A stretch of 64,000 nucleotides of DNA. Origin: a bacterium. Lineage in GTDB: Bacteria; Pseudomonadota; Alphaproteobacteria; Rs-D84. Of this stretch, positions 11,653-50,887 are shown in pieces. Each line of letters begins with the position of its first letter. The stretch's first letter is position 1. Under the pieces are notes generated by a model, which saw only the letters and a program-made list of their open reading frames with translations, searched no databases and was not told the origin of the DNA. The position numbers and the translations under genes were made by a program. Location of the stretch: assembly GCA_014803525.1 (NCBI GenBank), contig JAAVBP010000004.1, forward strand, positions 54,918 through 118,917. The letters run 5' to 3'.

Positions 11653-13608
11653 TTAATCGTCAATCCGGCGACCAAAAATTACCACACCCAACACAGACAC
11701 CAATAAAACAATTATCGTCCACACATCGCGACCAATGCGACGATATGGCGTCATATGCGCGTCACCTGCGCGCCCGTCCAGCCACCCTGTCACACCAATT
11801 GGAATCTGTGAAATAATTTTACCGTCCGGTGCAACAAATGCACTGATACCAGAATAATTTGCACGAATAACCGGCAACCCTGATTCGATCGCATAGCGCC
11901 GCACCATATCCAAATGCTGGTACGTTCCAGGCGTACGCCCAAACCATGTATCATTGGTAATATTGATTATTGCGCTGGGCAATTCACCACGCGGGATCAA
12001 AGAATCAGAAAAAATAATTTCATAACAAATCGCCGGCACAAAAACAAATTCGCGACCATTTATATCGATACTTAATAACCGCGGCCCATCGCCCGACGTC
12101 AGGTCTGCTGGCGACGGCATTATTCCCATTGGACTGTATTCGCCAAACGGTACCAGATGCGATTTTGCATAAATATCGGAAACACGCCCCACAGGTGTGG
12201 CCAACACCATTGAATTATACATATGACCATCCATATACGCCGTTGCCCCCATCACAACAGGCACACCCAATATTTTTGAAAACGGCATATCATCGTCTGT
12301 TATAACAAACGGATACGACGTTTCTGGATAGACAATCAAATCAGGCCGCGCCGACATATCTCCATCGGCCCCCAACGCCAATAACATGCGAACATTACGT
12401 TCGGCACGCGCAATCACATCGGCATGGGAATACGACATCTTTTCATCCTGGGGCGCGGCCGGCTGCACAATACGAACAAGCGGAGAATCCGTATCCGGCA
12501 TTTGATTTGAAATATAAATATTATGACGCCCATACCATACACCACACACCAACATAAAAACGAATACAAGCCACGGAATCATGTACATAGCGCGTTTTTT
12601 CGCACGTAAAAATTCAACCGTCGCCGCGATAATTCCGACTATAATAAACGTCAGCCCAACCGCCCCAAACAATGCCATAGAATTTGCAACCATCGGCATC
12701 GGCATCATAATATTTGCCAAGGGATTCCATGGAAATCCGGTCAACACCCATTCACGCGCCCACAGCACCGCGACCCACGCGCCCGCAAAAACGAATGGTC
12801 TGGCCAAGGGCCGTGCGCGCGCTGCTGCAACAAACGGAAATGAAAAGATAATCGCACCCGCCAACGCCAGCCCCAGTATTCCCGGCACCGTCCATATGGC
12901 AAATTGTTGCGCCAGTTCAGGCACAACATATATTGAATGCAGTGCCCACCAAAACATAGCAACCGAATATGCTGCACCAAATGGTGCCACACATAAAAAC
13001 GTGCGCCATACAGATGTACGCGGTGCACCGGTTATCAACCAATATGCCCCCCCTATCCCCAGCAATGTTATCGGCCACATATAAAACGGTGCAAAACCCA
13101 AGGCCGCCGCCACACCACACGCAATCAACGCAACCGTGCGCCAAAATCCGCCACAACGCTGCGGCATCACACTATCAGATTCATATGGATTTTTTATCCC
13201 CAATTTTTCCAATATTTTTATTTCCTTGGCCTCCATTATTTCAGCCTCGTCATCCTGGATATGATCATATCCCTGCAGATGCAGCATTCCATGCACAACC
13301 ATATGCGCAGTGTGTTCGGCAATCGATATTCCGGCGTCACGCGCCTGGCGCGCAACGGTATCCAGCGATATATAAATATCACCTAATAACAGGTCATCAC
13401 CCAGTTCAAATGATAAAACATTTGTCGGTTTGTCTATCCCGCGATATTCTTTGTTTAATTGATGAATTTCCGTATCATCGGTCAGTATAATAGAAACCTC
13501 AACCCCGGCGCGGCGCGGCCCGGCGGCGGTTGCGATTTTCTTAAAATCTATCTTGTACTTTTTCCAGCGCGGATCGTTATAATTAACAAAAACTTGCATA
13601 TCCATCAC
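11653..13608 (-). CDS. lnt: in-frame fusion: endoribonuclease YbeY domain (about aa 1-145) + apolipoprotein N-acyltransferase Lnt (about aa 148-651)
   Basis: HGMLHLQGYDH zinc motif of YbeY; Lnt transmembrane region plus CN-hydrolase motifs (VYPETSYPF, PAICYEIIF); no stop codon between the two domains. Confidence 0.8.
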   Translation of the reverse strand: MMDMQVFVNYNDPRWKKYKIDFKKIATAAGPRRAGVEVSIILTDDTEIHQLNKEYRGIDKPTNVLSFELGDDLLLGDIYISLDTVARQARDAGISIAEHTAHMVVHGMLHLQGYDHIQDDEAEIMEAKEIKILEKLGIKNPYESDSVMPQRCGGFWRTVALIACGVAAALGFAPFYMWPITLLGIGGAYWLITGAPRTSVWRTFLCVAPFGAAYSVAMFWWALHSIYVVPELAQQFAIWTVPGILGLALAGAIIFSFPFVAAARARPLARPFVFAGAWVAVLWAREWVLTGFPWNPLANIMMPMPMVANSMALFGAVGLTFIIVGIIAATVEFLRAKKRAMYMIPWLVFVFMLVCGVWYGRHNIYISNQMPDTDSPLVRIVQPAAPQDEKMSYSHADVIARAERNVRMLLALGADGDMSARPDLIVYPETSYPFVITDDDMPFSKILGVPVVMGATAYMDGHMYNSMVLATPVGRVSDIYAKSHLVPFGEYSPMGIMPSPADLTSGDGPRLLSIDINGREFVFVPAICYEIIFSDSLIPRGELPSAIINITNDTWFGRTPGTYQHLDMVRRYAIESGLPVIRANYSGISAFVAPDGKIISQIPIGVTGWLDGRAGDAHMTPYRRIGRDVWTIIVLLVSVLGVVIFGRRIDD

Positions 13609-13617: not shown

Positions 13618-15123
13618 CTATGCCATACCATGCCCATTGAACGTCAAATCTGACAGATCAAAATCCGCGCTATGTGCATTGTTTCCAAGCTTTTTTACCC
13701 CATTATTAAACACCGTCTTTTTATTACCAGTTATATTTATATCACACTGGCCACTGCGACATGCGTCAACAACATCCGCCGGCAATACATCGCGAACTTT
13801 CTGTTTGCCCGCCATTGAATTTCCATTTTTATCCACAGGATTTTTTAACCATTCGTGAAATTTTTTATACGTTGCACGATTAATTTTTCTGTAATTTTTT
13901 GTTTCCTTTGTGAAAAAAGCCTTCTTTTTATCGCCGCCAACCTGGGCACACATTATCTTATAAAATTCAGGCAAGCCATCAACTGGCACATCCAAAATAT
14001 CAACCGGATTTATATCACCGGACAATAATCCTGCCTCTATCCATCTACGATATATCAATCCAGGTGCCGGCTGACCACGCGCGACAATATACAATCCCAC
14101 AACATCCGTCAGCTTTTCTGTTTTATCTAATTCCAACAGCACACGCCCAAAACTTGTTGGATTTTTTACCGGATATTTTTTAAATAATTCGCGAATAGTT
14201 TCATCGGAAATATTTGCACCCTCTTTCTTGTAAATTTTTCGCAACTGGGCAAAACGCTCTCTATGATTCCGGTCATTTTTATCCTCTATTGCACCCGTGC
14301 CCATATTATAAACCATAGAGGCCACCATCAATGCCTTTTTCGTGGAATCAAATATTGATTTTCCCAACCCAACTTCATAGCAATACAATTCAAAGTATGT
14401 TTGTTCATCCAAGTGATTACAAGCCAATTCATATGCCTCGGCCGGTGTGATTGGGGGCGTTTCTGGCGTAACAGATTTCCCATTTAACAACATTGTTGAA
14501 CCAAAACCAATTGTGGGTTTTCCCTTGGCCTGTTGCCCGGGTTTTAATGGTTGCCCGGTCGCATCATCATATACGACGTGCATACCATCCCGCATACGCA
14601 CCCCTTCCACAGATACCAAATGCGCCATCAACAGCGGCGACATTGGGCGTAATTTTTCCCGATATGCCCCATATGTATTTTCTGCATAATGTGACGCATT
14701 CCCAAATGGCGTTATTGACTGCTCTGTCTGGGCAATTTGTTTACCTGCATCTTTGCTGTCTGTAATTTTTTCATATGCCTTGCCCCCGCCAAATGTCATG
14801 GCCGCCGCCAGATAATAAATCAAATGCGCAGATATATTCGGGTTCTTTTTTATGTACGCGGGCAGTACCTTGGGCTGGCCCTGTTTGTTTTTCCCGACAC
14901 GTATTTTGGACAATCCGCGTCCACCCGCACGCAACAAGTGATTATCCAATGCCACATATTTCGTTACCCACAGCAAAAACCGAAATGCATCCGCCTCTAC
15001 CCGCTCTATCTCTTGTTCAAGCATGCCGCCAATTGTGGTTGGTTGGCGGTCCTCTATCTCGCGACTGATACGCGCCATGGTGCGGTGTGGCGTATTTACA
15101 GCGTTTCTAAATTTCTCAGACAT
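13618..15123 (-). CDS. multidomain protein with a central GH24 (phage-type) lysozyme domain; no signal peptide
   Basis: EGVRMRDGMHVVYDDATGQP..TIGFGST...ITPAEAYEL...KKALMVASMVYNMGTGA matches the GH24 lysozyme core; unknown N-terminal (about 180 aa) and C-terminal (about 150 aa) regions. Confidence 0.7.
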   Translation of the reverse strand: MSEKFRNAVNTPHRTMARISREIEDRQPTTIGGMLEQEIERVEADAFRFLLWVTKYVALDNHLLRAGGRGLSKIRVGKNKQGQPKVLPAYIKKNPNISAHLIYYLAAAMTFGGGKAYEKITDSKDAGKQIAQTEQSITPFGNASHYAENTYGAYREKLRPMSPLLMAHLVSVEGVRMRDGMHVVYDDATGQPLKPGQQAKGKPTIGFGSTMLLNGKSVTPETPPITPAEAYELACNHLDEQTYFELYCYEVGLGKSIFDSTKKALMVASMVYNMGTGAIEDKNDRNHRERFAQLRKIYKKEGANISDETIRELFKKYPVKNPTSFGRVLLELDKTEKLTDVVGLYIVARGQPAPGLIYRRWIEAGLLSGDINPVDILDVPVDGLPEFYKIMCAQVGGDKKKAFFTKETKNYRKINRATYKKFHEWLKNPVDKNGNSMAGKQKVRDVLPADVVDACRSGQCDINITGNKKTVFNNGVKKLGNNAHSADFDLSDLTFNGHGMA

Positions 15124-15191: not shown

Positions 15192-16457
15192 ATGACTGAT
15201 ATACAACGCCCGCTTGCCGATTTAATGCGCCCCACAGACATAGACAGTGTCGTGGGCCAGACGGCATTACTGGGGGAAAATGGACTGGTGCGCCGCATGG
15301 TTGATGCGGGGAAATTATCAAACCTGATTTTGTGGGGGCCGCCCGGATGCGGCAAGACGACGATTGCCCGCGCATTGGCCGCATCGGTTGATATGGATTT
15401 CGTACCGATGTCCGCCGTATTTTCCGGCACACCCGATATTAAAAAGGCCATGGACGCCGCGCGTCTGCGTCGTGATATCGGTCGCCAAACATTACTGTTT
15501 ATCGACGAAATCCACCGCTTTAATAAAACACAACAGGATACCCTGTTGCCATATCTGGAAGATGGCACAGTTATCTTTATCGGTGCGACAACAGAAAACC
15601 CCAGCTTTAATTTAAATAACGCATTGCTGTCGCGGTGTCATGTTGGTGTACTGACGGCACTGGGGACCGAAGATTTATTGACATTGATGTCACGTGCCGA
15701 AGAATTTATGGACAAGAAACTGCCACTTAGCCCTGATGCGCGCACACATTTGGCCCAGATTGCGGACGGCGACGCACGTTTTATGTTGAACACCGTTGAA
15801 TATTTGTTGACCGCGAAATTCAAACAGGAATTAGATGCAGACGCGTTGGATAACGCCGTCCAGAAACGCGCCCCCATGTCTGATAAATCCGGCGATGAAC
15901 ATTATAATTTAATATCCGCGGTGCATAAATCACTGCGCGCGTCGGATACGGATGCGGCGCTGTATTGGGTGGCACGCATGATGACATCGGGCCAGGATCC
16001 GAAATATATATTCCGCCGCCTGTCGCAATTCGCAATGGAAGATATTGGCCTGGCCGATCCAAATGCGATGCAGATGGCCCTCGCCGCGTGGCAAATATAC
16101 GAACGAATGGGCAGTCCTGATGGCGACCTGGCATTAACGGAATTGGTAATATATCTGGGTACGGCCCCAAAAAGCACCGGAAATTACAAGGCGATGAATG
16201 CCGCATATGCCGCCGCCAAAAAGTATGGCAGCCTGCCACCACCAAAAAACATTTTAAATGCGCCAACAAAAATGATGCGCGAAATGGGATACGGCGCAGG
16301 ATATATTTATGACCCAGACACCGCATCCGGATGCAGTGGCCAAAACTGTTTCCCGGAACAAATGGGACGCCAAAAATTCTATCACCCAATTGAACGTGGG
16401 TTCGAACGCGAAATAAAAAAACGCCTGGAATACTGGGACAGCTTTCGCAAGAAATAA
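15192..16457 (+). CDS. rarA: replication-associated recombination protein A (AAA+ ATPase)
   Basis: Walker A motif GPPGCGKTT; MgsA/RarA C-terminal domain. Confidence 0.9.
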   Translation: MTDIQRPLADLMRPTDIDSVVGQTALLGENGLVRRMVDAGKLSNLILWGPPGCGKTTIARALAASVDMDFVPMSAVFSGTPDIKKAMDAARLRRDIGRQTLLFIDEIHRFNKTQQDTLLPYLEDGTVIFIGATTENPSFNLNNALLSRCHVGVLTALGTEDLLTLMSRAEEFMDKKLPLSPDARTHLAQIADGDARFMLNTVEYLLTAKFKQELDADALDNAVQKRAPMSDKSGDEHYNLISAVHKSLRASDTDAALYWVARMMTSGQDPKYIFRRLSQFAMEDIGLADPNAMQMALAAWQIYERMGSPDGDLALTELVIYLGTAPKSTGNYKAMNAAYAAAKKYGSLPPPKNILNAPTKMMREMGYGAGYIYDPDTASGCSGQNCFPEQMGRQKFYHPIERGFEREIKKRLEYWDSFRKK

Positions 16458-18515: not shown

Positions 18516-19025
18516 TTAATACCGCCCGATACAGCCCAAATACGAATTGCCCGTTGATTCCAGTATATTTATAAACGGCGCGGGACTTTTCCCAGAAAAC
18601 AGTGCCAGGATCGTACCACTGTCGGTCGCCAACATATCGGAAACCGTGGCAATACCAGAATTCATCTTTTTAAAAAAACCGCTGGCCGGGTAAATTTCAG
18701 CCGCGAACAAATGTGTACCCCCGCGTGCACGGGCATGGTGCACACCTTCGATCACCATTAACTGACATTCCGGGGAAATAATTAATTTATCGGTTACAAC
18801 CGCCGTCCCCCCCAGTAATTCGCCCCACCATCCGGTCGATTCGCAAAACACGGGATAGTATACGCGTGCATCCGGATTTTCGGCAAATATACCCGCCAAA
18901 TCCAAATCACCCGCCGCCAAACGTGGCATAACGCCGGTAGTACTGCTTACCACTTTGCGCGCCAGATGATATTCTGCATCACCCTTGGTATTACGTGGCC
19001 AGTAAAGAATCGGAAACGTCTTCAT
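18516..19025 (-). CDS. hypothetical protein (downstream of membrane paralog P0)
   Basis: ORF co-directional with and adjacent to 19094..20389. Confidence 0.45.
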   Translation of the reverse strand: MKTFPILYWPRNTKGDAEYHLARKVVSSTTGVMPRLAAGDLDLAGIFAENPDARVYYPVFCESTGWWGELLGGTAVVTDKLIISPECQLMVIEGVHHARARGGTHLFAAEIYPASGFFKKMNSGIATVSDMLATDSGTILALFSGKSPAPFINILESTGNSYLGCIGRY

Positions 19026-19093: not shown

Positions 19094-20389
19094 TTATTTT
19101 TTTATCGCCTCGTACCACTTTTTCGCACTATTCCACATGATATTTATGTTGTTTTTCGCCGTCTGATAGAACTTGTCCGATATCTGAATATTAAATAACG
19201 TCTTGACCAGTGCTGGAATCATCGTCATAAACATTGAAATAAATATACCCATCATCAGGATTGTTATCACACTGTCGTTGCGCATCATCAGTCCATCCAT
19301 CAAAATTCGCGAATCGTTTTGCGCCAATGCCATTCCTAATCGCGATGCCCCACCCCATTTGCCGAACACCGCATTTAAAAACATTATCGCAAACGTCAGG
19401 AATACACCCGTCATTGCAATACCGACGGTGCCCTTTATAACATCGTCAATCATCTGTTTTATGGTGCGGCCACCCTGGGGAAAAATCTGCCATCCAGAAA
19501 ACAACCACCCCATCAGCATCAATGGCAACATAATTAAATCCATCGCCAACGTTATAAATATTTCCAGGAAATACACCGGGATCGGCAACAACGCCATAAT
19601 AAACAACACCAATATGGTCAGACCCGCAAAAAATATCGGCACATTTGGAAAAATCGGAATTCCCCACATTATCTTGTGCATATATTCCGAATCAAACGCC
19701 ATGTTCAACATCGCCCACCCTATCGTCATCCCCAGGCCGGTTATCTGGTGAACATTTCCAACCTCGCACGCCAGGTTATATCGCAGCATTGGCGAAAACG
19801 CCCCGGCATCCGCCGACGCCGATGTGGAAATCGCCGGATCTGCCATTGCGGTGGCAACAACGCATTCTGTAAAATTACCATCACCGCCGATATTTGCGGC
19901 AATATGATTCACAGACAGACCGACTGTAAATATCGGTTGGATAACAATTGAACTGATCATACGGGGCAACGGCATCACCAGAACCGCACACACCAATCCC
20001 AATTTTATCAAATGCACCCCGAAATCAGACGTAATCGACCACGGCTGATCTATTTTTGCATTTATGAATCCGGAAAAAATCTTCCATCCAAACCACACAC
20101 ATGACAAAATTACAACAAATGGAATTATCACAGTGCCCAGCGCACTGTACGCCTTGGGCAACAAATCAGACATAGTGGCCATAACACCACTGAACATGTC
20201 ACACGACCAACAGGTTGAAAAAAACGACAGCGCATCCGACATATCAAACGGTACCGCATTACGATATACTGAAAATCCAACTATTCCGACCGCACCCGCA
20301 ATTCCACCGACAATAAATGGCGCGACCGCCCCGGCAGACAACGGCAAGAACGACAAAAATACAATCCAAAATTTTTTTAATGCGCTCAT
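19094..20389 (-). CDS. polytopic membrane protein, paralog P0 of a 5-member family (VirB6/TrbL-like hypothesis)
   Basis: Start at the internal Met (MSALKKFWIVFLSFLPLSAGAVAP, signal-like); many transmembrane helices; CWSC motif shared with paralogs; hydrophilic C-terminus. Confidence 0.6.
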   Translation of the reverse strand: MSALKKFWIVFLSFLPLSAGAVAPFIVGGIAGAVGIVGFSVYRNAVPFDMSDALSFFSTCWSCDMFSGVMATMSDLLPKAYSALGTVIIPFVVILSCVWFGWKIFSGFINAKIDQPWSITSDFGVHLIKLGLVCAVLVMPLPRMISSIVIQPIFTVGLSVNHIAANIGGDGNFTECVVATAMADPAISTSASADAGAFSPMLRYNLACEVGNVHQITGLGMTIGWAMLNMAFDSEYMHKIMWGIPIFPNVPIFFAGLTILVLFIMALLPIPVYFLEIFITLAMDLIMLPLMLMGWLFSGWQIFPQGGRTIKQMIDDVIKGTVGIAMTGVFLTFAIMFLNAVFGKWGGASRLGMALAQNDSRILMDGLMMRNDSVITILMMGIFISMFMTMIPALVKTLFNIQISDKFYQTAKNNINIMWNSAKKWYEAIKK

Positions 20390-20399
20390 TGCTTTTAAG

Positions 20400-20429
20400 T
20401 ATATCACATTTTGTCCCAAATGTGATATA
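20400..20429. promoter_or_regulatory. perfect 12-6-12 inverted repeat (TATATCACATTT-tgtccc-AAATGTGATATA) in the divergent promoter region
   Basis: Seen directly in the sequence; lies between the start codons at 20389 (minus) and 20451 (plus). Confidence 0.65.
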
Positions 20430-20450
20430 ATTGAAAAAAATATATTATAA

Positions 20451-21743
20451 ATGAAAACGTTGCACAGAATCTTATCCGGAACATTGTTGGCATGTATTAT
20501 GCTGTGCCCGTGCGCCGCGCATGCCGAATGGGGCATCGTGGACAGCCTGAATCTGGCGCCGTTTGTTCCACTGGTTTTGGATGCGTTTATGACGGTTGCA
20601 ACCGGCGGATATGAATTCTTGGTTCGTGACACAAATGGCCACATGGGAATTATATACGTTCTGATATGGGGATTTTTAGCCATATCTATGGGGTTGTATC
20701 TGGTAAAGATGTACTTTCCATCAAAATGGCTGGGCGTGTTTGGATTTTCCGGCGGCGGTGAAATGATTTCCGGCAAAGCAACCGGTATGACCATCGCACA
20801 AAACATGCTAAAGCCTGCCATGCGCGCAATTATCGCGGCGGTTGTTTTACTGCAGATAAAGCCGATATATGTAACAGAATGGCTGGTAAATCCATTTATG
20901 GAATTCGGCGCAATTTATACAGATGCCATCACCAGCGGGATTAACACCGGCGGCATTACGGGTGGCACCACAGAACCGGTCGAATGTCCGCAGGATATAC
21001 TGTCCCAGGGATGGATTTCCGCGCGCAGTTGCACATTCATAACCCAACCCGTTGCCGACATCAGTCACGTAAACAATCAAATGATAAAGCGCGGCCTGGA
21101 CTTTGTGCACCGTGGGCTGCGGGGATTAATCACACTGATCCCGCATGGCGGTACAGATTTCATGAATCTGGTATCAGGTATATTGTTGGTCGTGACATTT
21201 GTCGGATGCAATCTGTTTATGGCCCTGCTGATTATCCAGGCGATATTTGATTTCGGCATGTCGTTGATTCTGTATCCGTTCCAGGTTTTGACATGGGTCG
21301 CAAAACCAAAAAATCCAGACAAATGGTTTGATGTATGGCCGGCATTTTCTGGAATTATCAAGGCACTGCAGAGTATGGTTATAACCATGATTGCATGCGC
21401 GTTTATATTAACAATCAATATCGCAATTATACGCGCATTGTTTAATTGGAACAATTCTGTGTTTGTCGTGGCCGCTGGCGGCAGCGCGTCCAGCAACGTT
21501 CCCACCCCCGCGGGCACCGCCATGGGATTTGGCGAACATTCCATTTTATGGCTGTCTGCGATACTGACGTTTTATTTGATGTTGCGCATATTTAATTTAA
21601 CACGCGAAAGATTAAGTATGTACGCACCCGCCAAAGACACCATGTACAAAAAGGTAACCGGCGATACAAAACGTCTGTTGGGCGATGCCAAGAATTGGGG
21701 CAAAACAATCGGCCGGGCCGCTGGATGGATAAAGAAAAAATAA
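20451..21743 (+). CDS. polytopic membrane protein, paralog P1
   Basis: Signal peptide, at least 6 transmembrane helices, Lys-rich C-terminus. Confidence 0.65.
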   Translation: MKTLHRILSGTLLACIMLCPCAAHAEWGIVDSLNLAPFVPLVLDAFMTVATGGYEFLVRDTNGHMGIIYVLIWGFLAISMGLYLVKMYFPSKWLGVFGFSGGGEMISGKATGMTIAQNMLKPAMRAIIAAVVLLQIKPIYVTEWLVNPFMEFGAIYTDAITSGINTGGITGGTTEPVECPQDILSQGWISARSCTFITQPVADISHVNNQMIKRGLDFVHRGLRGLITLIPHGGTDFMNLVSGILLVVTFVGCNLFMALLIIQAIFDFGMSLILYPFQVLTWVAKPKNPDKWFDVWPAFSGIIKALQSMVITMIACAFILTINIAIIRALFNWNNSVFVVAAGGSASSNVPTPAGTAMGFGEHSILWLSAILTFYLMLRIFNLTRERLSMYAPAKDTMYKKVTGDTKRLLGDAKNWGKTIGRAAGWIKKK

Positions 21744-22919
21744 ATGAACAATGTGCTGAACCCTTTGATTGATGAAACGGTGCAATGTTGGGGTTGCCCG
21801 GTATTTGACCGCCTGTTTGGCGTGATATCCACCGCGGCGGCGGCCGTGTACGACCGGTTTGTGGTTATATGCGCCGTTTTGTTCTGTATATTGTTTGCAT
21901 TCTTTGCATTAAATGCGGTATGGAAAAACATTCGCGGCGGCGGCACTGATCCGTTTTATCAAAAATCACTGCGCCCGGTTATTATAAATTCAATTGTTGC
22001 ATTTTCATTGCTGGGACTTGGGGTGGCATTGCCCCGTTTTGTGTCGCAAATCACATTTGAACCGGTTGCCGATATAACAACAATTTATACACAAAGCATT
22101 TTGCAAACAGATGCGGACACCGTAAACGAACGCGTCACGTATCAACCCATGCCAATGCCGGATGATGGTTTCTATCGGCCCCAATTGCGTGATAAAATAA
22201 TACTGATTATGAAGACAACAATCACCCAGTTTCAATCATATATGAAACTGGGGCTGGCGGTGATAGATCGCGCATTCGAATGGGATGCCATGTTGGGGAT
22301 CGGGGCGTTTTTAAAACATATAATCATTCTGTTTTTAGGGATATATTTGTTTTATGGATTTTTCAAATTATTTATAAAGTTCTGTTTTTATTTTGCAGAT
22401 GTAATTATCGCAATGACATTTTTTGCATTCTTTTTCCCATTTTCTATAACCATGGTGGCATTCCGTGGCGCAGACGGACCAAAGTGGATGTCAGGGCTGG
22501 CCAAAAACGTTGGCACAGACCAATTTAAAAAAGTTGTTGGTGCCATAATCGGCCTGGCGGCAACAGTGTTAACATACACTGTGATGATGGTAATAATTGC
22601 AAAATATTTTTCCGCACCGGGCCAATCACCAACGGAATTAATGACACTTATCCAAGACGGCAATGTGTTTTCCGCCGACCTGAACGAAGACAACATTGCC
22701 CAGATTACGTTATTCAGTGCAATCGTTTTGGTTTATGTTCTGAACTTTATATATGAACAAATCCCCAAGGCAACACAAATGGTGCTTAGCGCGTTTGACG
22801 TCAGCACGGAAACCGCCCTTAGCGAGCAATTGGCCAATGACGCAATGCGGCTGACATCTGTGGCGGCCAGTTATATAAAAAACATTGGCGGCAAAATAAC
22901 AAACGGCGGTAATAAATGA
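21744..22919 (+). CDS. polytopic membrane protein, paralog P2
   Basis: Starts immediately after the P1 stop; CWGC motif; multiple transmembrane helices. Confidence 0.65.
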   Translation: MNNVLNPLIDETVQCWGCPVFDRLFGVISTAAAAVYDRFVVICAVLFCILFAFFALNAVWKNIRGGGTDPFYQKSLRPVIINSIVAFSLLGLGVALPRFVSQITFEPVADITTIYTQSILQTDADTVNERVTYQPMPMPDDGFYRPQLRDKIILIMKTTITQFQSYMKLGLAVIDRAFEWDAMLGIGAFLKHIIILFLGIYLFYGFFKLFIKFCFYFADVIIAMTFFAFFFPFSITMVAFRGADGPKWMSGLAKNVGTDQFKKVVGAIIGLAATVLTYTVMMVIIAKYFSAPGQSPTELMTLIQDGNVFSADLNEDNIAQITLFSAIVLVYVLNFIYEQIPKATQMVLSAFDVSTETALSEQLANDAMRLTSVAASYIKNIGGKITNGGNK

Positions 22920-24355
22920 AAGCGCAACTGATCATGATTGGCATACGACTGGTAATGGGTGCAATTGCGCTGGGGGTTGGTATATGGTATTTGTCATCAT
23001 CGATCGGCGGCGCGGCAATTACATATACCAGCATGGATAATTTCATGTCCGCCATCGGTGCATCCAATGATATTGCCGGCGCCAATGGATGCTTTATGTG
23101 CGGATATGTATCGGAACTGTTCGGTGTAATCGGACGTGCAACCGAAATGTTTTGGACAGCGATATTGGATTGGCTGTGGGTGCTGATGGCCCTGGGGTTT
23201 GGCGTATTTTTATTTATCAGTGCCATCCAGCATATATTCGCCGCCGCCAAAGACACCGCAAAAGTGGATGCCAACGAAAAAAAATTGGAATTCAAATCCT
23301 GGTTTGACAAGGTCTGGCGCCAAGGCGCGCGCATAATGATTGTTGGCGCGATGATTGGGGCACTGGGCATGGGCGGAACAACCGCACTGAGAAGTGTTGC
23401 AAGCGTAACAATTACACCCGTAATGTTTGTGGGCGCTGAATTATCCATGGCGGCGACCGGCACAGGATCCGCTGCACAATGTAATGCCATTCGCACATCA
23501 GCCAATGATGCAGGCGATATTCTAAACCCGATAATGGGCCCGTTTATGTGCGTCGTCGGAAATTTAAACAGTGTAATGTTGGCGGGCGCGGCCGGCGGAT
23601 TTGCATTGATGAACTATGCGTGGATGGGAATGGGCGGCGGAATATTTACGTGGGTCGCGGGATTGGCACTGGTTCTGATGTTTTTGGTGATTGGATTTAA
23701 TTTATTTTTCCAGGTTCTGTCGGTCGTATTTAAACTGGTGTTTTTGATAATATTCCTGCCGTTCTTTTTGGCGGCCGCCGCATTTGAAAAGACATGGAAG
23801 ATGGCATCGGGCCTGACCAGTAATGCGATAAACATGCTGGTAAAATCCGCAGTGCAAATTGTCGGTATCACATTAAAAGTATTAATTATTTACGCAACCG
23901 TGTCATATGCCGCCGATGAATTTTTCCCCGGCCCCGCCGATGGATACAGTGCGATTTTTCCACCAATCCTTAGTGCAACACCACAAAACCCAGACGCACA
24001 AACAATGTCCGTGATACAGGTATTTTCAGAATGCGAACGCGTGGCAACGATCGGCGGCGAAATGGATGCGGATGCATTCAAAAACTGTTTTGTCACCCGC
24101 AAAGCATCGGTTGAACAACAATACCCCGGCGCATTTGATTTCATGTCCGATGGGTGGGATTTCCTGATGTTGATGATTGGATTATTCCTGTTGTATTTCT
24201 ATGTTGTTGAACCGCGTGTGAACAAGATACTGGCCGCCCCCGGCAAGGATGAATTTGACTTTGGCACATGGACCAAAGATTTAGGCAAAAAGATATGGTC
24301 GGCACCCACACAAATATTTGGCGCCGTGTCCAAGGCAATGGGCAAAAAGGACTGA
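22916..24355 (+). CDS. polytopic membrane protein, paralog P3
   Basis: ATGA overlap with P2 (translational coupling); CFMC motif; multiple transmembrane helices. Confidence 0.65.
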   Translation: MKAQLIMIGIRLVMGAIALGVGIWYLSSSIGGAAITYTSMDNFMSAIGASNDIAGANGCFMCGYVSELFGVIGRATEMFWTAILDWLWVLMALGFGVFLFISAIQHIFAAAKDTAKVDANEKKLEFKSWFDKVWRQGARIMIVGAMIGALGMGGTTALRSVASVTITPVMFVGAELSMAATGTGSAAQCNAIRTSANDAGDILNPIMGPFMCVVGNLNSVMLAGAAGGFALMNYAWMGMGGGIFTWVAGLALVLMFLVIGFNLFFQVLSVVFKLVFLIIFLPFFLAAAAFEKTWKMASGLTSNAINMLVKSAVQIVGITLKVLIIYATVSYAADEFFPGPADGYSAIFPPILSATPQNPDAQTMSVIQVFSECERVATIGGEMDADAFKNCFVTRKASVEQQYPGAFDFMSDGWDFLMLMIGLFLLYFYVVEPRVNKILAAPGKDEFDFGTWTKDLGKKIWSAPTQIFGAVSKAMGKKD

Positions 24356-24359
24356 CGCG

Positions 24360-25670
24360 ATGAAATGGCCAAATAAATTTTTAAAGAAAATTATCACGTG
24401 CCTGGTCGTGGCAACATTGGTTTTTTCCGCGGCGCACGCGGCCGGAAACCTGCCCGGCGCCGCAGGTGGCGACATTGGCGATTATGGCGCATGGACAACA
24501 CCAAACAATCGCGAACAAATCACAGGCGCCATGTCACGCGACCTGGATGCATTTCAATCTGAATTTCAAACCCAGGTTATAGATAATTATGTCCCGATCG
24601 AGGCCAAAGTCGGCATCGCATTTATAAACGGCATGGCGTATATAGGCCGCGTTTTGGACGGTTCACTGGTGCGTTTTATGACAATATTCATATTGATAAT
24701 GTTCATATTCTGGGTCAGTTTTGAGGCATACCAGATTATAACCGGCACCACAGAAATTAAAAAGTCAATCGAAGGCATCGTCAAAAAAGGCGGCATGATT
24801 GCAATATGGTTAATCGTACTGCAATTTGGTGCCGCACAAATTTTCATGTGGGTGATGGGCCCGATTATAACCATCGGCACATATACATCGGATTTAATTT
24901 TGAATGCGGTAACATCAACCGCGGGCGCATCCCTGCCGGACACATGTGGCGCGATACGCGAATACGCCGCCACGCACGTATCAAACGCCGCCATTGTCGA
25001 TGCAAATGCGGCGGCAGATTTGATATGTTTGCCAACGCGACTGTCCGGATTTTTCTATACCGCCGTGGCGGTTGGATTTAAATGGATGTTGCTTGGGATC
25101 GGGTTCAGTGCCCTGACCTTTATGGCGGGTGCGATATTTGTAGTGGTGTTTTTAATTTTGATTTGGAAATTTGCATTGCTGGCACTTGGCGTGATTGCAG
25201 ATCTATTTTTAGCCGTATTCATGTTGCCGTTCACCGCGGTCGCGGAAACAATTGGTCAAACATCGTACAAGGGAATCGCCGGCAACATATTCAACGGATT
25301 TTTAAAAATATTTAATGCAGAATCATTATCAACACAAATCGGACGCTTTATTAACGCGGCATTGTTCTTTGTGTCTTATTCAATTGTGATCGCGGTATGC
25401 GCGGCATTGATGACCGGTATAATTGATGTTAAATTATCGGCCGTCACACCATTGATAAACACCGATCAATGGATTATCGTTATACTGATCGGGGCACTGG
25501 TATGGTATCTGGCGGACAAGGCATCGAAAATCGCAAAAGATCTGGGCGGCAATATCGACGACAACATCGGCCAGCAATTTGGCAAAGATATCGTAACCTG
25601 GGCCAAGGATATTCAGAAAACATATCAGAAATATCGCAAATTATACCAAGACAGCAAAAAATCATCTTAG
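24360..25670 (+). CDS. polytopic membrane protein, paralog P4
   Basis: Start MKWPNKFLKK... with signal peptide, 5 nt after the P3 stop. Confidence 0.65.
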   Translation: MKWPNKFLKKIITCLVVATLVFSAAHAAGNLPGAAGGDIGDYGAWTTPNNREQITGAMSRDLDAFQSEFQTQVIDNYVPIEAKVGIAFINGMAYIGRVLDGSLVRFMTIFILIMFIFWVSFEAYQIITGTTEIKKSIEGIVKKGGMIAIWLIVLQFGAAQIFMWVMGPIITIGTYTSDLILNAVTSTAGASLPDTCGAIREYAATHVSNAAIVDANAAADLICLPTRLSGFFYTAVAVGFKWMLLGIGFSALTFMAGAIFVVVFLILIWKFALLALGVIADLFLAVFMLPFTAVAETIGQTSYKGIAGNIFNGFLKIFNAESLSTQIGRFINAALFFVSYSIVIAVCAALMTGIIDVKLSAVTPLINTDQWIIVILIGALVWYLADKASKIAKDLGGNIDDNIGQQFGKDIVTWAKDIQKTYQKYRKLYQDSKKSS

Positions 25671-28603: not shown

Positions 28604-31033
28604 TCATTCCCCGCTTGGGCTGCATACGCCATTTTTCAAACTATATCCCGACTTACAAACACAAATACCGGTTGTCGGATTACGTTCCATATTTTTACCA
28701 CCGCACTTTTGCACACATGAACTACCAAATACCTCGTATCCAACTTTACATCTGCAATACTCATTGACATATGCGCTATAGACATCAGTCGATGTTATTA
28801 TTCTGTCGCCAGAATAAATAGTCGACCAAAACAGATCCTTGGACCAGCCCGTTATACCAACACCCGTTAAGTGGATTGGGGTACACGTCATATCATTGCT
28901 TCGCGCCCTTTCAGGGGAACAAGTACTACCGTCGTTTTCTATAAGTTCCAATACCTCTGTACGTGATTTTGATACATATTCCGAATTTTCTGGGCACAGC
29001 ATAGATTGATAGAATATCTTGGACACTTCTTCGATATAACATTGTGGTGAATCATCAGTATATCCATCCATTTCACAACTGTTGTTATCATATATCGCCA
29101 TACCACAGGTCAGTGCCACATTCCGGCATGCACCATTCATTACGTTTTTAATACTGGATGCCGCGGCCGACGTGGTCCATGTATTAATCTGGGTAACCTG
29201 TTGGTTATAACATGCGGCCACATCCAACATACAATTGGACGCATAATCAGAAATAATTTTTTCCTGGCCCGATTTGATATTAACCATTGCACGCTGGATA
29301 TAATTTACAACAATGTCATTATATTTATTATAGTTACCGTTGCTGTCATACGTGTAACGCTGACACTTGTCCAAAACGGCACGGCACAATCCCCCGTCGG
29401 TGGATTTGGCGCCGGTTCCGATTTTTTGTAACAAATATGCAACCGTGCACGATCCGTTTCCAACATTTTTTACATACGTTCCTTTATCATTTTCAGAGGA
29501 ACCAACAGTACCATCTGTATATGCTGTCAGAGTATTACCATTCTGGTATACAGGATATGGCTTGCAAGTGTTATCCGATATCAACAGCCCAGCAGCATCG
29601 GTTAAGAATTTTGTATTTATTTGTGAATTATCATACGCGTACATCAAATCACGGATATTGGTTACGTCCATCCCCAGAACAACTTCGCCATTTTCGTCGA
29701 TATACTTTTTGGTCGGATCCAGACACTTTTCATAATTTTCACCACAAACCATTTCGTCGGTCATGCACGCATCCAATGCGGCAATACAACCCTTGGCATC
29801 ATATTCGTTTTTATTTTGCAACACGGCCAGTCGCGCCTTTTGCAGCATTAAATTCGCACTGCGTACATTCGACACCAATGTTTCATTCATTTTGTTCAAA
29901 CCGGCCTCGTACGCGATACAATCGCGATCAATCGCCAGGTCGTAATTTGATGTAATCTGATCCTTGGTCGCGCCGGCGTCTTTGCATTGTGTCAGAATTG
30001 AATTGCAACGCTTTTTCGCCGCGTTATATAATTCGGTCCCACGCAGGTTTGAAATACTGCTGCTGTTGTTATTTAAAAAATCCAAACTAAACAAATCCGA
30101 CGAATCAGAAAAATCCAGATTCATATCCATCAAGGATATTCCATCCGTACCGGCAACACTGCTGGTGGAACTGGATGGATCTTTGATTAATGCCGCAATA
30201 TCGTCCAGCATGCTGCGTGTTTCCGATGTATCACGCGAACCAGACAGTGCCTCTTCTGCCTCGGTCGCGGACATGATCGCACTGATTTCATCCGCAGACA
30301 GGCCAACATAACGAATACGCTGGGCCACGTCATTTAATTGCGAATTCGCATCCTTGACCGCGGTTTCAACCTTGGTATAACGGGATAAATTGGCACTGCA
30401 TGAACAGCGCTTTTGATTTGAATCAACAACGGCACAAAATTGATCCATGCAATCGTTATACTGTTCTTGGCAAGACTTGTTCAATTCGGCTGTTTGTTCA
30501 AGACGCTCTTTGGCCTCTGAAATTGTTTCGCGTTGATTTTTTGCGGTACCCGCGCGCGACTGTAATGCACGCACAGAATTCCCGACATTTGATCCCGTCT
30601 GAACACCGGTATTACCAATTGTGGCGCGACCGCCAACCTCGGCCGTGGATGGGCGCAGTGTCAATCCCGCACGCCGCACCGGCGCCGTATTATTAATCGA
30701 TGATGCCGCACGCGTGGAATTACGGCCAACTGTATTCGTCGCCGCATCCAAACCGGTACGCGAGGATGATACATTTGCGGTCGTGCCACGGGCCGCGGTT
30801 GCGCGTGATGACACGGTTCCGGTGCCTGATGTTGACGTGGCGGTTGCATTGGAACGCGTTGCACGCGACACCGCGCTGCGCGATGCATCGCCGTCCCCAC
30901 GCGTCGATGTTGATGTGGCGGTGGTATCCGCGGTGGCGTTTGAATTTCCCGACGGTAACGCACGCGACGCCGTGGCGCCACTGGCACCAGACATAACAAA
31001 AACTGATAAAATATATGCAATCAGCCTTTTCAT
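28604..31033 (-). CDS. large secreted Cys-rich protein with an S/T/A/R-rich low-complexity N-terminal region
   Basis: Signal peptide MKRLIAYILSVFVMSGASGA; about 170 aa of low complexity; then a Cys-rich globular region of about 600 aa. Confidence 0.6.
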   Translation of the reverse strand: MKRLIAYILSVFVMSGASGATASRALPSGNSNATADTTATSTSTRGDGDASRSAVSRATRSNATATSTSGTGTVSSRATAARGTTANVSSSRTGLDAATNTVGRNSTRAASSINNTAPVRRAGLTLRPSTAEVGGRATIGNTGVQTGSNVGNSVRALQSRAGTAKNQRETISEAKERLEQTAELNKSCQEQYNDCMDQFCAVVDSNQKRCSCSANLSRYTKVETAVKDANSQLNDVAQRIRYVGLSADEISAIMSATEAEEALSGSRDTSETRSMLDDIAALIKDPSSSTSSVAGTDGISLMDMNLDFSDSSDLFSLDFLNNNSSSISNLRGTELYNAAKKRCNSILTQCKDAGATKDQITSNYDLAIDRDCIAYEAGLNKMNETLVSNVRSANLMLQKARLAVLQNKNEYDAKGCIAALDACMTDEMVCGENYEKCLDPTKKYIDENGEVVLGMDVTNIRDLMYAYDNSQINTKFLTDAAGLLISDNTCKPYPVYQNGNTLTAYTDGTVGSSENDKGTYVKNVGNGSCTVAYLLQKIGTGAKSTDGGLCRAVLDKCQRYTYDSNGNYNKYNDIVVNYIQRAMVNIKSGQEKIISDYASNCMLDVAACYNQQVTQINTWTTSAAASSIKNVMNGACRNVALTCGMAIYDNNSCEMDGYTDDSPQCYIEEVSKIFYQSMLCPENSEYVSKSRTEVLELIENDGSTCSPERARSNDMTCTPIHLTGVGITGWSKDLFWSTIYSGDRIITSTDVYSAYVNEYCRCKVGYEVFGSSCVQKCGGKNMERNPTTGICVCKSGYSLKNGVCSPSGE

Positions 31034-31118
31034 TCCTGATATTTATTATACCACAACGTAACAGCACAAAAAAGGCCAAAATAAACACCGCCCCGTTTTT
31101 ATTCGGGGCGGCGCATAA

Positions 31119-31847
31119 TCAGAACAATATATTTAATTTCAAACCAACCTGAAATTCGCTGTCTTCGAATTCATAATCGACATGCCCGATATATTGCGTG
31201 CGACCATATTGGCGAATAATCTGTCCGTTTATCCATTCCTGGTCAAAGTCCGGATTGGTGGACTTTCGCAAATCCGCCCCCAGCCCCAGACGCCACGCGG
31301 CACGCAATCTAAAATAAACCTCTGGTATGAAATCAATGTATGACATGCCACGGTCATCATCGAAAATCCAACTGGACTTTACCGTACCGGCCAATGTCAT
31401 TGTATCATATTCGCGCCCGAAACGCAGACCCGCATAATATGTTGAATCTGCAAACCATGGGGTGCGCACACGTGATGAACCGCCAAACTTAAAACCAAAC
31501 AAAACATCGGATATGATACGCACATCATTGTCCGCCGCGGTCATCATGCGATATTTTCCGCCCAAATCAAAGCTTGAGAAACCGTCTTCACCACCCGCAA
31601 AATCATTTTGATAATGCAGCGAAATTCCCATATTAAACCGATCGGTAAACCCGTACGACAATGCCTGGCCCAGGCGCAAAATACTGTCGTAATATGCAAC
31701 GTTTGATGTCGATAAAATATCACCCCGCCCGTTCATATATAACGGATCCGATGTATCATATTCTGCAACATTTGCGTGCGCCGACACCACCGCACCAGAC
31801 ATGACAACCGCCGCCGCGGCCGCCATAAATATTTTTTTGAACCACAT
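31119..31847 (-). CDS. outer-membrane beta-barrel protein (OMP1)
   Basis: Signal peptide; alternating hydrophobic pattern; C-terminal ...NILF. Confidence 0.6.
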   Translation of the reverse strand: MWFKKIFMAAAAAVVMSGAVVSAHANVAEYDTSDPLYMNGRGDILSTSNVAYYDSILRLGQALSYGFTDRFNMGISLHYQNDFAGGEDGFSSFDLGGKYRMMTAADNDVRIISDVLFGFKFGGSSRVRTPWFADSTYYAGLRFGREYDTMTLAGTVKSSWIFDDDRGMSYIDFIPEVYFRLRAAWRLGLGADLRKSTNPDFDQEWINGQIIRQYGRTQYIGHVDYEFEDSEFQVGLKLNILF

Positions 31848-31874
31848 TTTTATTTACCCCCGCATTATAAACAC

Positions 31875-31907
31875 GCGCCACACCCCGGATTAATCCGGGG
31901 GGCGCGC
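31875..31907 (-). terminator. GC-rich hairpin between OMP2 and OMP1
   Basis: cgcgccacaccccggattaatccggggggcgcg nested stem. Confidence 0.45.
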
Positions 31908-31919
31908 ACATGACCAACT

Positions 31920-33188
31920 TTAGAACTGGAATATTGCCTGCAGACCAATGGTCGTTTCCTTGTAATCGGATAATTTGGCATCACCCTGCTTCATCCATCC
32001 GTTTACATAGGCCGCATCCTCTTCGGACCAATAACCATATGCCCAGTATCCCAATTTTTTATCATCCGCACTGTCATAGAACGCGGTCTTGGCATACAGG
32101 TTCAATGCAAACCAATCATTGGGCTGCCAACCGATGGCACCCTTGATCGACGCCTGGTTGTGCCAGTCATAATCGCCAAACACCGCCTCCAGATTCAATG
32201 TCCAATCTTCGTCCAGAACAGTGAACGCACCGATACCACCTTCGACATAGAACACATTGTCGACATCCGTATCATACGCGATAAAGATAGATGCCTCGTT
32301 TCCTTCTTCGGTCGTTCCGGTTATACCATTACCATATGAATTACCGTCAAAGTCAACATACCACCCGCGCAGTACGCCATATATTGTGCTGCGTGAAACT
32401 TTGTATCCCCCCTTTAGATCCAGGATATAACTGTTGGCAATATCTTTTTGATGTTGGAAATATCCGGACAATGTTCCAATCCATTTTGCATCGTCGATAA
32501 AGCGCCACTGGGCACCCAACCCCCACAGGTTCAGACCATTGTCATCCATTTTATCATCCGGCGCGGTCGACCAATCGAATTTGTATTTTGTTGAATCATA
32601 CTTTGCCATCGCAATAACTGCCAAACGATCTGTGATACCATAGCTGAAATCTTCTTTGATCGAAAACGCCTTGGCATCCCATTTGGCACGTGTATCGGAA
32701 ATCGTTATACCTTCGGCCGGGGTTAATGCAATGTCATACGAATTCATGTCATAAGATAAATCGGTGACCGAACCGAACTTGCCCTTTAACGGTTGAAAGA
32801 ACGGATGCGCCAAATAATATTTACGTTTCAGTTCGCTGCGTACGGTTTCGGCACGGGTTGTGCGAACATTGCGTGAAGTTGTGGTTGTCGTCGCCGAAGT
32901 ATACGCCGAAGTCCCCAGACGGGTATTGCTGTCGTACTGTTTGTACATGGCGCTGCGCGAACTTGGCTGTGAATAATACAAATCACCCGCATCACGTGAC
33001 TGATATGTCGTGGTTGTGCTGCGCGTCTGATACTTTTGATAATTGACATTATCGCGACTGCGCATGGCCGGCGCACCAGTTAAATCCGCACTGGATGCCG
33101 CGCGCGGACGAACATTTGTTGCGGCCCAAACCGGGCTTAACCCCAATACAGCCGCCGCCCATACAAATAAAGACATCTGCTTTTTCAT
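31920..33188 (-). CDS. outer-membrane beta-barrel protein / porin-like (OMP2)
   Basis: Start at the internal Met (MKKQMSLFVWAAAVLGLSPVWA); Tyr/Gln/Thr-rich N-terminal region; C-terminal ...LQAIFQF. Confidence 0.6.
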   Translation of the reverse strand: MKKQMSLFVWAAAVLGLSPVWAATNVRPRAASSADLTGAPAMRSRDNVNYQKYQTRSTTTTYQSRDAGDLYYSQPSSRSAMYKQYDSNTRLGTSAYTSATTTTTSRNVRTTRAETVRSELKRKYYLAHPFFQPLKGKFGSVTDLSYDMNSYDIALTPAEGITISDTRAKWDAKAFSIKEDFSYGITDRLAVIAMAKYDSTKYKFDWSTAPDDKMDDNGLNLWGLGAQWRFIDDAKWIGTLSGYFQHQKDIANSYILDLKGGYKVSRSTIYGVLRGWYVDFDGNSYGNGITGTTEEGNEASIFIAYDTDVDNVFYVEGGIGAFTVLDEDWTLNLEAVFGDYDWHNQASIKGAIGWQPNDWFALNLYAKTAFYDSADDKKLGYWAYGYWSEEDAAYVNGWMKQGDAKLSDYKETTIGLQAIFQF

Positions 33189-33262
33189 GATTTTATTTCT
33201 CCTTTTGGCTTGGATTATATCACAAAAAGGTAACCCAAAAAAGCATAAAGTAATTCGTACAT

Positions 33263-33850
33263 CTAAAACAGATATCCGATCGCGACCCCGGCGCGACTGT
33301 GACGCGCAGATATTTTTACCGGCACGTCCGATATACTGTAACGCAGGCGCGCACGCGACCATATCTCATATATTTTTATAAACGTATTGGCCGATATGTT
33401 TATCCGCATGCCAATGCCGCCACCATATATAAACCCGCGGTCATGAAAATGCGCGTCATCAAACTTTACGTCCGTAATGCCAATTTCCCCGATTGCATAC
33501 GGTGTGATGGCAAACGGTAAAATCGGCATTTCCAAGATGGACGTAATATTGCGCATACGCATTCCATCCACATCACGCCAAGACACATTTGCACCAACAG
33601 CAACACCATAAACATCAATTCCGGCAGTGATATTCGGCGCATCAAATTTGTATTTTTGTGTTTCGTTAAATTTATATCCCATTACATCTATTTTTGCGTG
33701 CGTTTTGGCACGAATATCAAATCCGGTGGATATGTAAAAGTAATTATCCTTATGCTCTGTTATACAATCTGAATATATTTCGATTATTTCATCCGCATAT
33801 GCCATGCCACTTATCAGCCCCAGCGTTAATGCGATTGCTGCCTTACGCAT
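33263..33850 (-). CDS. small outer-membrane beta-barrel protein (OMP3)
   Basis: Start MRKAAIALTLGLISGMAYA; C-terminal ...AIGYLF. Confidence 0.55.
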   Translation of the reverse strand: MRKAAIALTLGLISGMAYADEIIEIYSDCITEHKDNYFYISTGFDIRAKTHAKIDVMGYKFNETQKYKFDAPNITAGIDVYGVAVGANVSWRDVDGMRMRNITSILEMPILPFAITPYAIGEIGITDVKFDDAHFHDRGFIYGGGIGMRINISANTFIKIYEIWSRARLRYSISDVPVKISARHSRAGVAIGYLF

Positions 33851-34035
33851 ATTTGCCCCCATTGTTACAATCAAACAAAAAACCACTGGAAACAAATTTC
33901 AAGTGGTTGGAGGTTAAGAACAACCTAGGGATTGCCCACCTTATTCAGATATATCGGTGGCCTCCAACCGTGGTTGGAAAAAATGCGCCTGCGTCCGTAC
34001 CAGACGCACCCTAGGATATCGAGGTTCTTAAGCCC
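33851..34035 (-). promoter_or_regulatory. structured leader element, variant copy B1, upstream of OMP3
   Basis: GGTTGGAGG...CCTCCAACC helix, outer helix TAAGAAC/GTTCTTA, inserted tgcgtc...gacgca hairpin, ccact...agtgg + T-run terminator, then Shine-Dalgarno. Confidence 0.5.
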
Positions 34036-49845: not shown

Positions 49846-49978
49846 TTTTATTCCTCTTTTGCCCTTAAATATAATATCGCGCGCACGGATAAGCAAATAT
49901 AAAATACATTTGCGAATTGGACGCGCATATGCTAGCCTTGCATTGACAATATCTGTAACAAGGAAAGGAAAAATTAAA

Positions 49979-50887
49979 ATGAACGACATCATAATGCATG
50001 ACGTAATCATATTGGGTTCAGGCCCGGCGGGTCTGACGGCGGCGCTGTATTGCGCACGCGCAAATAAAAAGACATTGGTACTGGGGGGGGCGACCCTGGG
50101 TGGCCAGACGGCCGGCATTGCAAAGCTGGAAAATTATCCGGGGTTTATGGGATCCGGCACGGAACTGTCCGAATTTATGAAGAAACAGGCCGAAACGTTT
50201 GGCGCCGAGATAGTATTCGAAACCGCGACCAATATTTCCGGCGACGCCGAGGGTGGATTTAACATCACATGCACAAATGGCCGCCACTATGTTGGTCGCA
50301 CGGTAATTATCGCGACCGGCGCATCCCCGCGAAAACTGGAAATCCAGGGCGCACGCGAGTTAATGGGCAAAGGCGTCTCTTACTGTGCCACATGTGACGG
50401 ATTTTTCTATTATGGCAAAGATGTCATCGTCATGGGCGGTGGGAACAGCGCACTGAATGACGCACTGTATCTGGCGGACGTTGCAAAAAGCGTGAAAATC
50501 GTTTATCGCAAGGGCGCATTCACCCGGGCCGAGGCTGTTTTGCGCAACCGCGTTGCAGAACGTGAAAATATCGAATGCCTGTTTAATACGGATCTGGCAA
50601 AAATCATGGCCGGGCCGGATGATCGCCTGACCGTTACAACAACGGCCGGCGACGAAATCATAACCGACGGTCTGTTCGTTGCCATCGGGCACGAGGCGAA
50701 TACGGATTACCTGTCCGAGGAAATCGCGCGTGATAACATGGGCCGCCTGGCCCCCGATGCATTACCGACCGGCATGTATGTTGCGGGCGACGTGGAATCG
50801 GGGATCAAGATGCAGATCGCAACCGCGGTCGGCACGGGATGCACCGCCGCAATGGATGCGATTGCATACCTGAACTCAAAACAATAA
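49979..50887 (+). CDS. trxB: thioredoxin-disulfide reductase
   Basis: FAD motif GSGPAG; redox-active CATC; NADPH motif; start taken at MNDIIMHD. Confidence 0.9.
   Translation: MNDIIMHDVIILGSGPAGLTAALYCARANKKTLVLGGATLGGQTAGIAKLENYPGFMGSGTELSEFMKKQAETFGAEIVFETATNISGDAEGGFNITCTNGRHYVGRTVIIATGASPRKLEIQGARELMGKGVSYCATCDGFFYYGKDVIVMGGGNSALNDALYLADVAKSVKIVYRKGAFTRAEAVLRNRVAERENIECLFNTDLAKIMAGPDDRLTVTTTAGDEIITDGLFVAIGHEANTDYLSEEIARDNMGRLAPDALPTGMYVAGDVESGIKMQIATAVGTGCTAAMDAIAYLNSKQ

Follow-up and report, generated by a model that had tools for sequence, protein, structure and literature searches.

Five conserved membrane protein paralogs, very likely of VirB6 fold, are encoded by a gene array of the gut lineage Candidatus Enterousia

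Organization of the array

A tight array of five genes, here called P0 to P4, resides in a stretch of 64,000 nucleotides of contig JAAVBP010000004.1 (assembly GCA_014803525.1, positions 54,918 to 118,917), referred to in its whole length as the window. The host is Candidatus Enterousia, a gut lineage of Alphaproteobacteria which belongs to the order Rs-D84, and not to Rickettsiales. The five products are polytopic membrane proteins, very likely related to VirB6 of type IV secretion systems (T4SS). The genes, and an inverted repeat located between the first two of them, are listed below by their position in the window. The profile E-values refer to the family searches described in the next section.

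19094-20389, minus strand: P0, 431 amino acids (aa), polytopic, predicted VirB6 fold, the paralog transcribed divergently
20388-20441, no strand assigned: inverted repeat of 24 nt within the 61-bp P0/P1 spacer, 83% complementarity
20451-21743, plus strand: P1, 430 aa, opens the four-gene operon, profile E 1.9e-24 (second iteration)
21744-22919, plus strand: P2, 391 aa, E 1.4e-8 with the P0-family profile and 1.4e-60 with the second-iteration profile
22916-24355, plus strand: P3, 479 aa, N-terminal transmembrane anchor, second-iteration profile E 1.7e-27
24360-25670, plus strand: P4, 436 aa, most divergent paralog, second-iteration profile E 1.8e-13

The open reading frame (ORF) of P0 extends mechanically to 20821; the start was set at 20389, which is supported both by homologue length and by the gene call of NCBI (HDR61_01385). 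The start of P4 is the ATG of the ENA gene call. P0 and P1 diverge from the 61-bp spacer. Stop and start codons abut at the P1/P2 junction (TAAATG) and overlap at the P2/P3 junction (ATGA), and P3 is separated from P4 by 4 nt. A first-pass annotation of this DNA, made from the letters alone, had described five genes at these coordinates, coding for proteins of 390-480 aa, one gene being divergent and four translationally coupled, and all this is confirmed, the lengths being 391-479 aa.

The same annotation had assigned to each protein at least six transmembrane helices, a Lys-rich C-terminus, a CxxC motif and an N-terminal signal or transmembrane segment. The first two features are shared by all. 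Hydropathy plots reveal six to seven hydrophobic segments in each of the five proteins, at least five such helices being expected of a VirB6-type protein, and all five terminate with a Lys-rich tail. The other two features are less widespread. P0 (CWSC, C60/C63), P2 (CWGC, C15/C18) and P3 (CFMC, C59/C62) carry the CxxC motif, which P1 and P4 lack. Four of the proteins have a hydrophobic N-terminus: the one of P0 is signal-like and is accompanied by a transmembrane segment, P3 has the anchor listed above, P1 a cleavable-looking signal peptide (..CAAHA/EW), and P4 a signal peptide ending in ..SAAHA/AG. P2 lacks an N-terminal hydrophobic segment, and begins straight at the CxxC motif.

A single protein family

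The five proteins are markedly divergent, sharing only 20-27% identity in pairwise BLAST comparisons. With a profile built from close P0 orthologs, P2 is detected (1.4e-8), and P1 just marginally. When this P0-family profile was run against 1.84 billion representative proteins, 189 relatives were identified, and the profile rebuilt from them detects all five window proteins, and no other of the 180 ORFs which reach 100 aa in the window. P0 to P4 are regarded as one family because the rebuilt profile picks up all of them, and the paralogy claimed in the first pass is thus borne out. The conserved core of the family begins at the CWxC motif, nearly invariant in the alignments of distant members; most subfamily members carry it at the N-terminus.

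In uncultured alphaproteobacteria other than Enterousia the relatives have lengths of 600-1500 aa, and many of the distant ones feature N-terminal extensions of 200-600 residues. In 6 of 60 distant members (e.g. P0356, 1013 aa) a Peptidase_M23 domain, a peptidoglycan endopeptidase, is fused to the VirB6-like domain. None of the source names of 20 distant relatives mentions VirB6, most being absent or reading 'hypothetical protein'. A tblastn search of a plasmid collection with P0290, an intermediate relative, gave no match.

Genomic context and conservation

The array is flanked by the gene for a 169-aa protein, rpmE and suhB on one side, and by uvrD and dnaQ on the other. Additional housekeeping genes identified by Pfam in the window are thrS, gltX, an apparent ybeY-lnt fusion, mgsA, ftsK, secDF, mutL, greA, lptF/G, xerC/D, serS, typA and recA, along with genes for glycosyltransferases. 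The gene for the 169-aa protein (18516-19025, minus strand) follows P0 after 68 nt, in the same orientation, and precedes rpmE and suhB. The protein has no match in Pfam, NCBIfam or PDB sequences, and its gene may be co-transcribed with P0. At the other end, the stop codon of P4 overlaps (25667-25670) the stop codon of uvrD, which is convergent and resides on the minus strand; therefore no space for a terminator is left in between, a sign of genome compactness.

Hundreds of gut metagenome assemblies recorded as 'Alphaproteobacteria bacterium' contain close homologues of P0 and P3 (60-81% identity), and Pfam domains are absent from all the homologues listed; for P3, which has 757 homologues, a domain was reported in 0 of the 120 listed. 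Scanning GTDB species representatives for P0 relatives yielded 250 stretches, and the conservation counts given here refer to the best 80. These are mostly labelled as uncultured Alphaproteobacteria, many bear the name Candidatus Enterousia, and a few that of 'uncultured Rickettsiales'; a closed chromosome, 958,618 bp in length, is among them. The array formed by one divergent and four tandem genes is kept in 76 of these 80 species-level loci, just two or four of the five genes being shown in the remaining four. For every paralog, one-to-one orthologs were recovered from 75-80 of the 80 genomes, with a median identity of 53-65% (range 45-79%). Orthologs of P1 were found at 79 loci (54-79% identity), of P2 at 78, of P3 at 77, and of P4 at 75 (45-65% identity). 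Because the identity among orthologs far exceeds the roughly 15-25% shared by the paralogs, the duplications must be ancient, and the genes subject to purifying selection. The five genes are core, vertically inherited and selectively maintained components of Candidatus Enterousia genomes. An origin from a mobile element or a plasmid was considered, and is ruled out by the housekeeping context, the synteny in 76 of 80 species and the flat GC content.

The P0/P1 spacer

Promoter scanning of the spacer, which hosts the inverted repeat, identified on the plus strand an extended -10 promoter-like site, ATCACA-17-TATAAT with TG, and on the minus strand its mirror image, ATCACA-17-TATACT, also with TG. 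The -35-like hexamer of each site sits within the -10 region of the opposite one. Both half-sites are retained in 64 of 77 Enterousia loci. On the P0 side, the end of the -10 hexamer is only 7-9 nt away from the ATG in 64 of 70 loci, and a leaderless, or nearly leaderless, P0 mRNA is therefore predicted. The same promoter-like geometry would assign to the P1 mRNA a leader of about 11-13 nt. The two sites are thus putative promoters. Co-expression of P0 to P4 is suggested by the symmetry of the promoter-like spacer, together with the translational coupling of P1-P4.

Evidence for VirB6 homology

The link to VirB6 is provided by the distant relatives of P0. The Pfam model TrbL (PF04610), which has a gathering cutoff of 25.9 bits, is matched by 21 of 60 of them, with a best E of 1.2e-8, most matches being below the cutoff; ten relatives scanned singly gave four TrbL matches, all just below it. 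These matches lie within the region aligned to the P0 profile. An independent hidden Markov model (HMM), built from Agrobacterium/Rhizobium-type VirB6 proteins, recognises 12 P0 relatives (E<1e-3) with the sequence order preserved, and VirB6 positions ~150-280 always map to what corresponds to the second half of the P0 profile. The window proteins are not directly detected by this VirB6 profile. Aligning the family to VirB6 by hhalign produced a weak local match (P 2-4.5e-4), in which a helix with an invariant Pro, LPLMLMGWLF in P0, is paired with GPLxLxGYLF in VirB6.

A structural comparison points in the same direction. A first AlphaFold2 model, obtained for P3 from 27 close homologues, was too poor to be used (predicted local distance difference test score, pLDDT, 53.7). 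The P0 model was built with no templates from a paralog-spanning alignment of 71 sequences (pLDDT 78.7; predicted template-modelling score, pTM, 0.72). It is almost wholly helical, and displays, as a prediction, the seven-helix fold found in VirB6 of the R388 stalk. When used to search by Foldseek, the only matches at probability 0.99-1.00 were five TrwI/VirB6 chains, with target-normalised TM-scores of 0.40-0.48.

Since the TrbL matches on relatives, the VirB6 HMM, hhalign and the structure model concur, it is very likely that the five proteins are homologous to VirB6 in fold, though they fail Pfam membership. They are therefore best described as a deeply diverged VirB6/TrbL-fold subfamily, missed by both Pfam and NCBIfam. 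The first-pass annotation had already tentatively read the array as a VirB6/TrbL-type expansion; this is sustained by the transitive sequence evidence and by the motif aligned by hhalign, and finds no direct match in Pfam or NCBIfam.

Arrays in other lineages

Tandem arrays of the family are not exclusive to Enterousia, and are seen in further uncultured alphaproteobacteria. Locus L002 (29.6% GC) hosts five tandem members, which also adjoin mgsA, L086 three and L091 four, and in metagenome-assembled genomes of Holosporales the family is present in single copy. About 7 kb downstream of the L091 array reside genes for a VirB11 homologue (phmmer 3.2e-19) and for a 1456-aa TrbI/VirB10-domain protein. 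No T4SS gene was found within 10 kb of the L002 and L086 arrays. The arrays of L091 and L086 are followed by a gene (12392-13357 and 15409-16404, respectively) for a protein of 321-331 aa with two HTH_3 domains, 45% identical between the two loci. Further conserved unknown proteins are encoded after it, and in L091 these are in turn followed by virB11 and by the TrbI/VirB10-domain gene.

Proposed role and alternative explanations

Enterousia genomes are small (0.75-1.0 Mb, roughly 900 genes). Respiration and the TCA (tricarboxylic acid) cycle are missing from them, and so are a portion of glycolysis and the standard transporters for nutrients. The lineage has been proposed to depend on partner cells, the mechanism being not known, and encodes many hypothetical membrane proteins, with possible roles in transport or cell interaction (PMC12306168). 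In the R388 T4SS, VirB6 forms an inner-membrane pentamer at the base of the stalk, which carries the VirB5 pentamer (PMC9259494). Rickettsiales host four to five tandem virB6 paralogs, other T4SS genes residing in distant clusters, and virB3-virB4-virB6 synteny is common among them (PMC7648143). The reading that we favour, to which a probability of about 0.55 may be given, is that the VirB6-fold paralogs of Enterousia are components of a scattered, rvh-like T4SS. P0 and the P1-P4 operon would be co-expressed from the conserved symmetric, putative divergent promoter, and the five products would assemble in the inner membrane to form a VirB6-type stalk base or channel. The assembly may be a heteropentamer in which each paralog occurs once, a stoichiometry proposed because the R388 base is a VirB6 homopentamer, and five conserved paralogs are found here. 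The structure would serve a T4SS with its remaining genes dispersed over the chromosome, like those of Rickettsiales, and the system would be used for contact-dependent exchange with a partner cell. What is demonstrated comprises the genes, how they are related and conserved, the VirB6 match of the predicted fold and, for a single relative, the vicinity of such an array to virB10/virB11; the heteropentamer, the presence of a T4SS in Enterousia, the function of the promoter and the biological role are what we infer from it.

Several results weigh against the favoured reading, and some of them concern homology itself. Even a threshold as loose as E<=1 yields no TrbL match for any of the five proteins, so the HMMER comparison with PF04610 turned out negative for the proteins of the first-pass annotation, and no NCBIfam model is matched by any of them. 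A family HMM of 38 sequences run against PDB sequences did not find VirB6, and returned only spurious matches, as did phmmer with P3, which retrieved coiled-coil or low-complexity proteins. The hhalign match is weak, reaching a probability of 33-46% over ~55 columns. The Foldseek probabilities support the structural likeness to VirB6 surmised in the first pass, but the corresponding E-values (~0.03) are not significant alone. All this could be accommodated by supposing that the proteins are an unrelated family of helical polytopic proteins, whose resemblance to VirB6 is coincidental or a model artefact. Spurious structural matches come easily to all-helical membrane proteins, no direct match was obtained in Pfam, NCBIfam or PDB sequences, hhalign stays under 50%, and most TrbL matches on the intermediates examined fall under the 25.9-bit cutoff. 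Yet TrbL on intermediates, the VirB6 HMM and hhalign converge on one region of the protein, the P0 model owes nothing to templates, and both tandem paralog arrays and the virB10/virB11 linkage seen in a relative fit VirB6 biology (PMC7648143). We regard an unrelated origin as very improbable.

Other adverse results concern the secretion system. Pfam detects no CagE/VirB4, VirB8, VirB9, TrbI/VirB10, T2SSE/VirB11 or VirD4 in the main ORFs of the window, phmmer with pTiC58 VirB1-B11 and TraG gives no match to any window ORF of 60 aa or more, in agreement with the early remark that virB3, virB4 and virB8-11 were not seen in the window, and housekeeping genes, with no T4SS gene among them, occupy the 8 kb on its left. 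A genome analysis of Enterousia/Rs-D84 mentions no secretion system, which is a weak negative (PMC12306168). Moreover, the family is present in three copies in L086 and in four in L091, so that five is not a universal number, and a neighbour-joining tree of the members found in the window, L002, L086, L090 and L091 is star-like, and does not separate a shared expansion from independent ones. A possible, though doubtful, alternative is thus that a VirB6-derived fold acts without any T4SS, as an inner-membrane channel or scaffold that would serve the uptake of metabolites or macromolecules, or envelope or cell-contact functions. No T4SS gene resides in 72 kb, the housekeeping synteny (suhB, rpmE, uvrD, dnaQ, mgsA) is conserved, the L002 and L086 arrays are likewise isolated from T4SS genes over 10 kb, and the CWxC motif is missing from the Agrobacterium-type VirB6 consensus; missing transporters and hypothetical membrane proteins, next to the silence about secretion systems, also suit this explanation (PMC12306168). 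Set against it are the linkage of the L091 array to virB10/virB11, and the fact that Rickettsiales likewise scatter T4SS genes in distant clusters (PMC7648143); because of this habit, the absence of a T4SS from one 64-kb window says little. An independent objection comes from VirB6 itself, as we know of no VirB6-fold protein working outside a T4SS. The scattered rvh-like T4SS remains our preferred reading. A bolder proposal, which we deem rather unlikely, is that a heteropentameric VirB6-type stalk or channel is the core of a highly reduced or re-purposed apparatus joining Enterousia, poor in transporters and obligately dependent on a partner, to another gut cell, for uptake or delivery, either as a cryptic T4SS made of equally unrecognisable parts, or as a device working without the canonical T4SS ATPases.

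Other genes of the window

Six unplaced neighbours of the array (809, 242, 480, 210, 169 and 501 aa) were considered as hidden T4SS parts and discarded: none belongs to a T4SS family in Pfam, and support came neither from NCBIfam nor from phmmer with pTiC58 VirB proteins. No homologues of the six are found beside the arrays in other lineages. Four of these proteins are encoded consecutively at 28604-33895 on the minus strand, look secreted, and have no Pfam or NCBIfam family. The 809-aa protein is Cys-rich, and its N-terminal region is rich in Ser, Thr and Ala. The 242-, 480- and 210-aa proteins may be outer-membrane beta-barrels, to judge from their signal peptides, their alternating beta-strand-like patterns and their C-terminal Phe.

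The 501-aa protein (13618-15123, minus strand) lies in housekeeping surroundings, and nothing but a Phage_lysozyme domain (residues 191-281, E 1.8e-5) is recognised in it. By analogy it could be a cell-wall hydrolase comparable to VirB1 in T4SS; nothing links it to the array. Next to it, at 11653-13608 on the minus strand, a 651-aa ORF combines an N-terminal YbeY endoribonuclease with LNT_N and CN_hydrolase domains, typical of apolipoprotein N-acyltransferase. It appears to be a gene fusion, and is called as a single 648-aa gene in the ENA assembly. ORFs on opposite strands overlap at 48568-50887, where serS (48568-50118, minus strand) faces a plus-strand ORF (48986-50887). In the latter, the Pyr_redox_2 domain (thioredoxin-reductase-like) begins only at residue 338; its true start is probably near 50000, the upstream part being spurious.

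Significance and relation to known systems

Candidatus Enterousia and Rs-D84 occur widely in the guts of humans and animals, and have genomes below 1 Mb. About 0.7% of the Enterousia genome is devoted to five conserved VirB6-fold proteins, which every annotation pipeline calls hypothetical. This genome share and this conservation make the array a concrete candidate for the missing cell-interaction machinery of Rs-D84. VirB6 paralog arrays are now extended beyond Rickettsiales, and the one described here is a natural test case to learn whether five different subunits can build a VirB6 pentamer.

TrwI/VirB6 of R388 (PDB 7o3v, 8rt9, 8rtd) shares ~12% sequence identity with the Enterousia proteins, which are 100-180 residues longer, carry an N-terminal CWxC in three of five cases, and have a Lys-rich C-terminal helix in all. 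R388 has one gene, Enterousia five chromosomal paralogs, surrounded by housekeeping genes and with no virB next to them. In VirB6 of Agrobacterium tumefaciens (pTiC58), residues 173-228 align by hhalign with P0 283-344. This protein is 295 aa long, and is encoded by a single-copy gene within virB1-virB11, unlike the Enterousia array; the CWxC of the Enterousia family is not part of the Agrobacterium-type consensus. The Foldseek score of Legionella DotA, the protochannel of the type IVB Dot/Icm system (PDB 9ngy), is within the general helical background.

The closest parallel is offered by the rvh system of Rickettsiales (RvhB6a-e; VirB6-1 to -4 in Anaplasma). Both systems feature four to five tandem, co-transcribed and highly divergent paralogs in a reduced alphaproteobacterial genome, and in both the array locus is devoid of the other T4SS genes, which, if present, reside elsewhere. 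Relatives of the Enterousia family elsewhere reach 600-1500 aa, as rickettsial VirB6 proteins do. The differences are equally evident. The Enterousia array has no virB3/virB4 upstream, and one of its genes diverges from the other four; at 391-479 aa the proteins are short, and devoid of the repeat-rich extensions of rickettsial VirB6; and they fail the TrbL model, a domain which rickettsial VirB6 proteins carry. The parallel with Rickettsiales drawn in the first pass is therefore good for the copy number, five, and not for the order, which is Rs-D84, nor for virB3-virB4-virB6 synteny or long extensions. The array is not a new kind of system. What is new is a divergent, CWxC-bearing VirB6-like subfamily, previously unrecognised by Pfam and NCBIfam, represented by five conserved short paralogs, free from virB3/virB4 synteny, in a gut lineage outside Rickettsiales whose genome is reduced.

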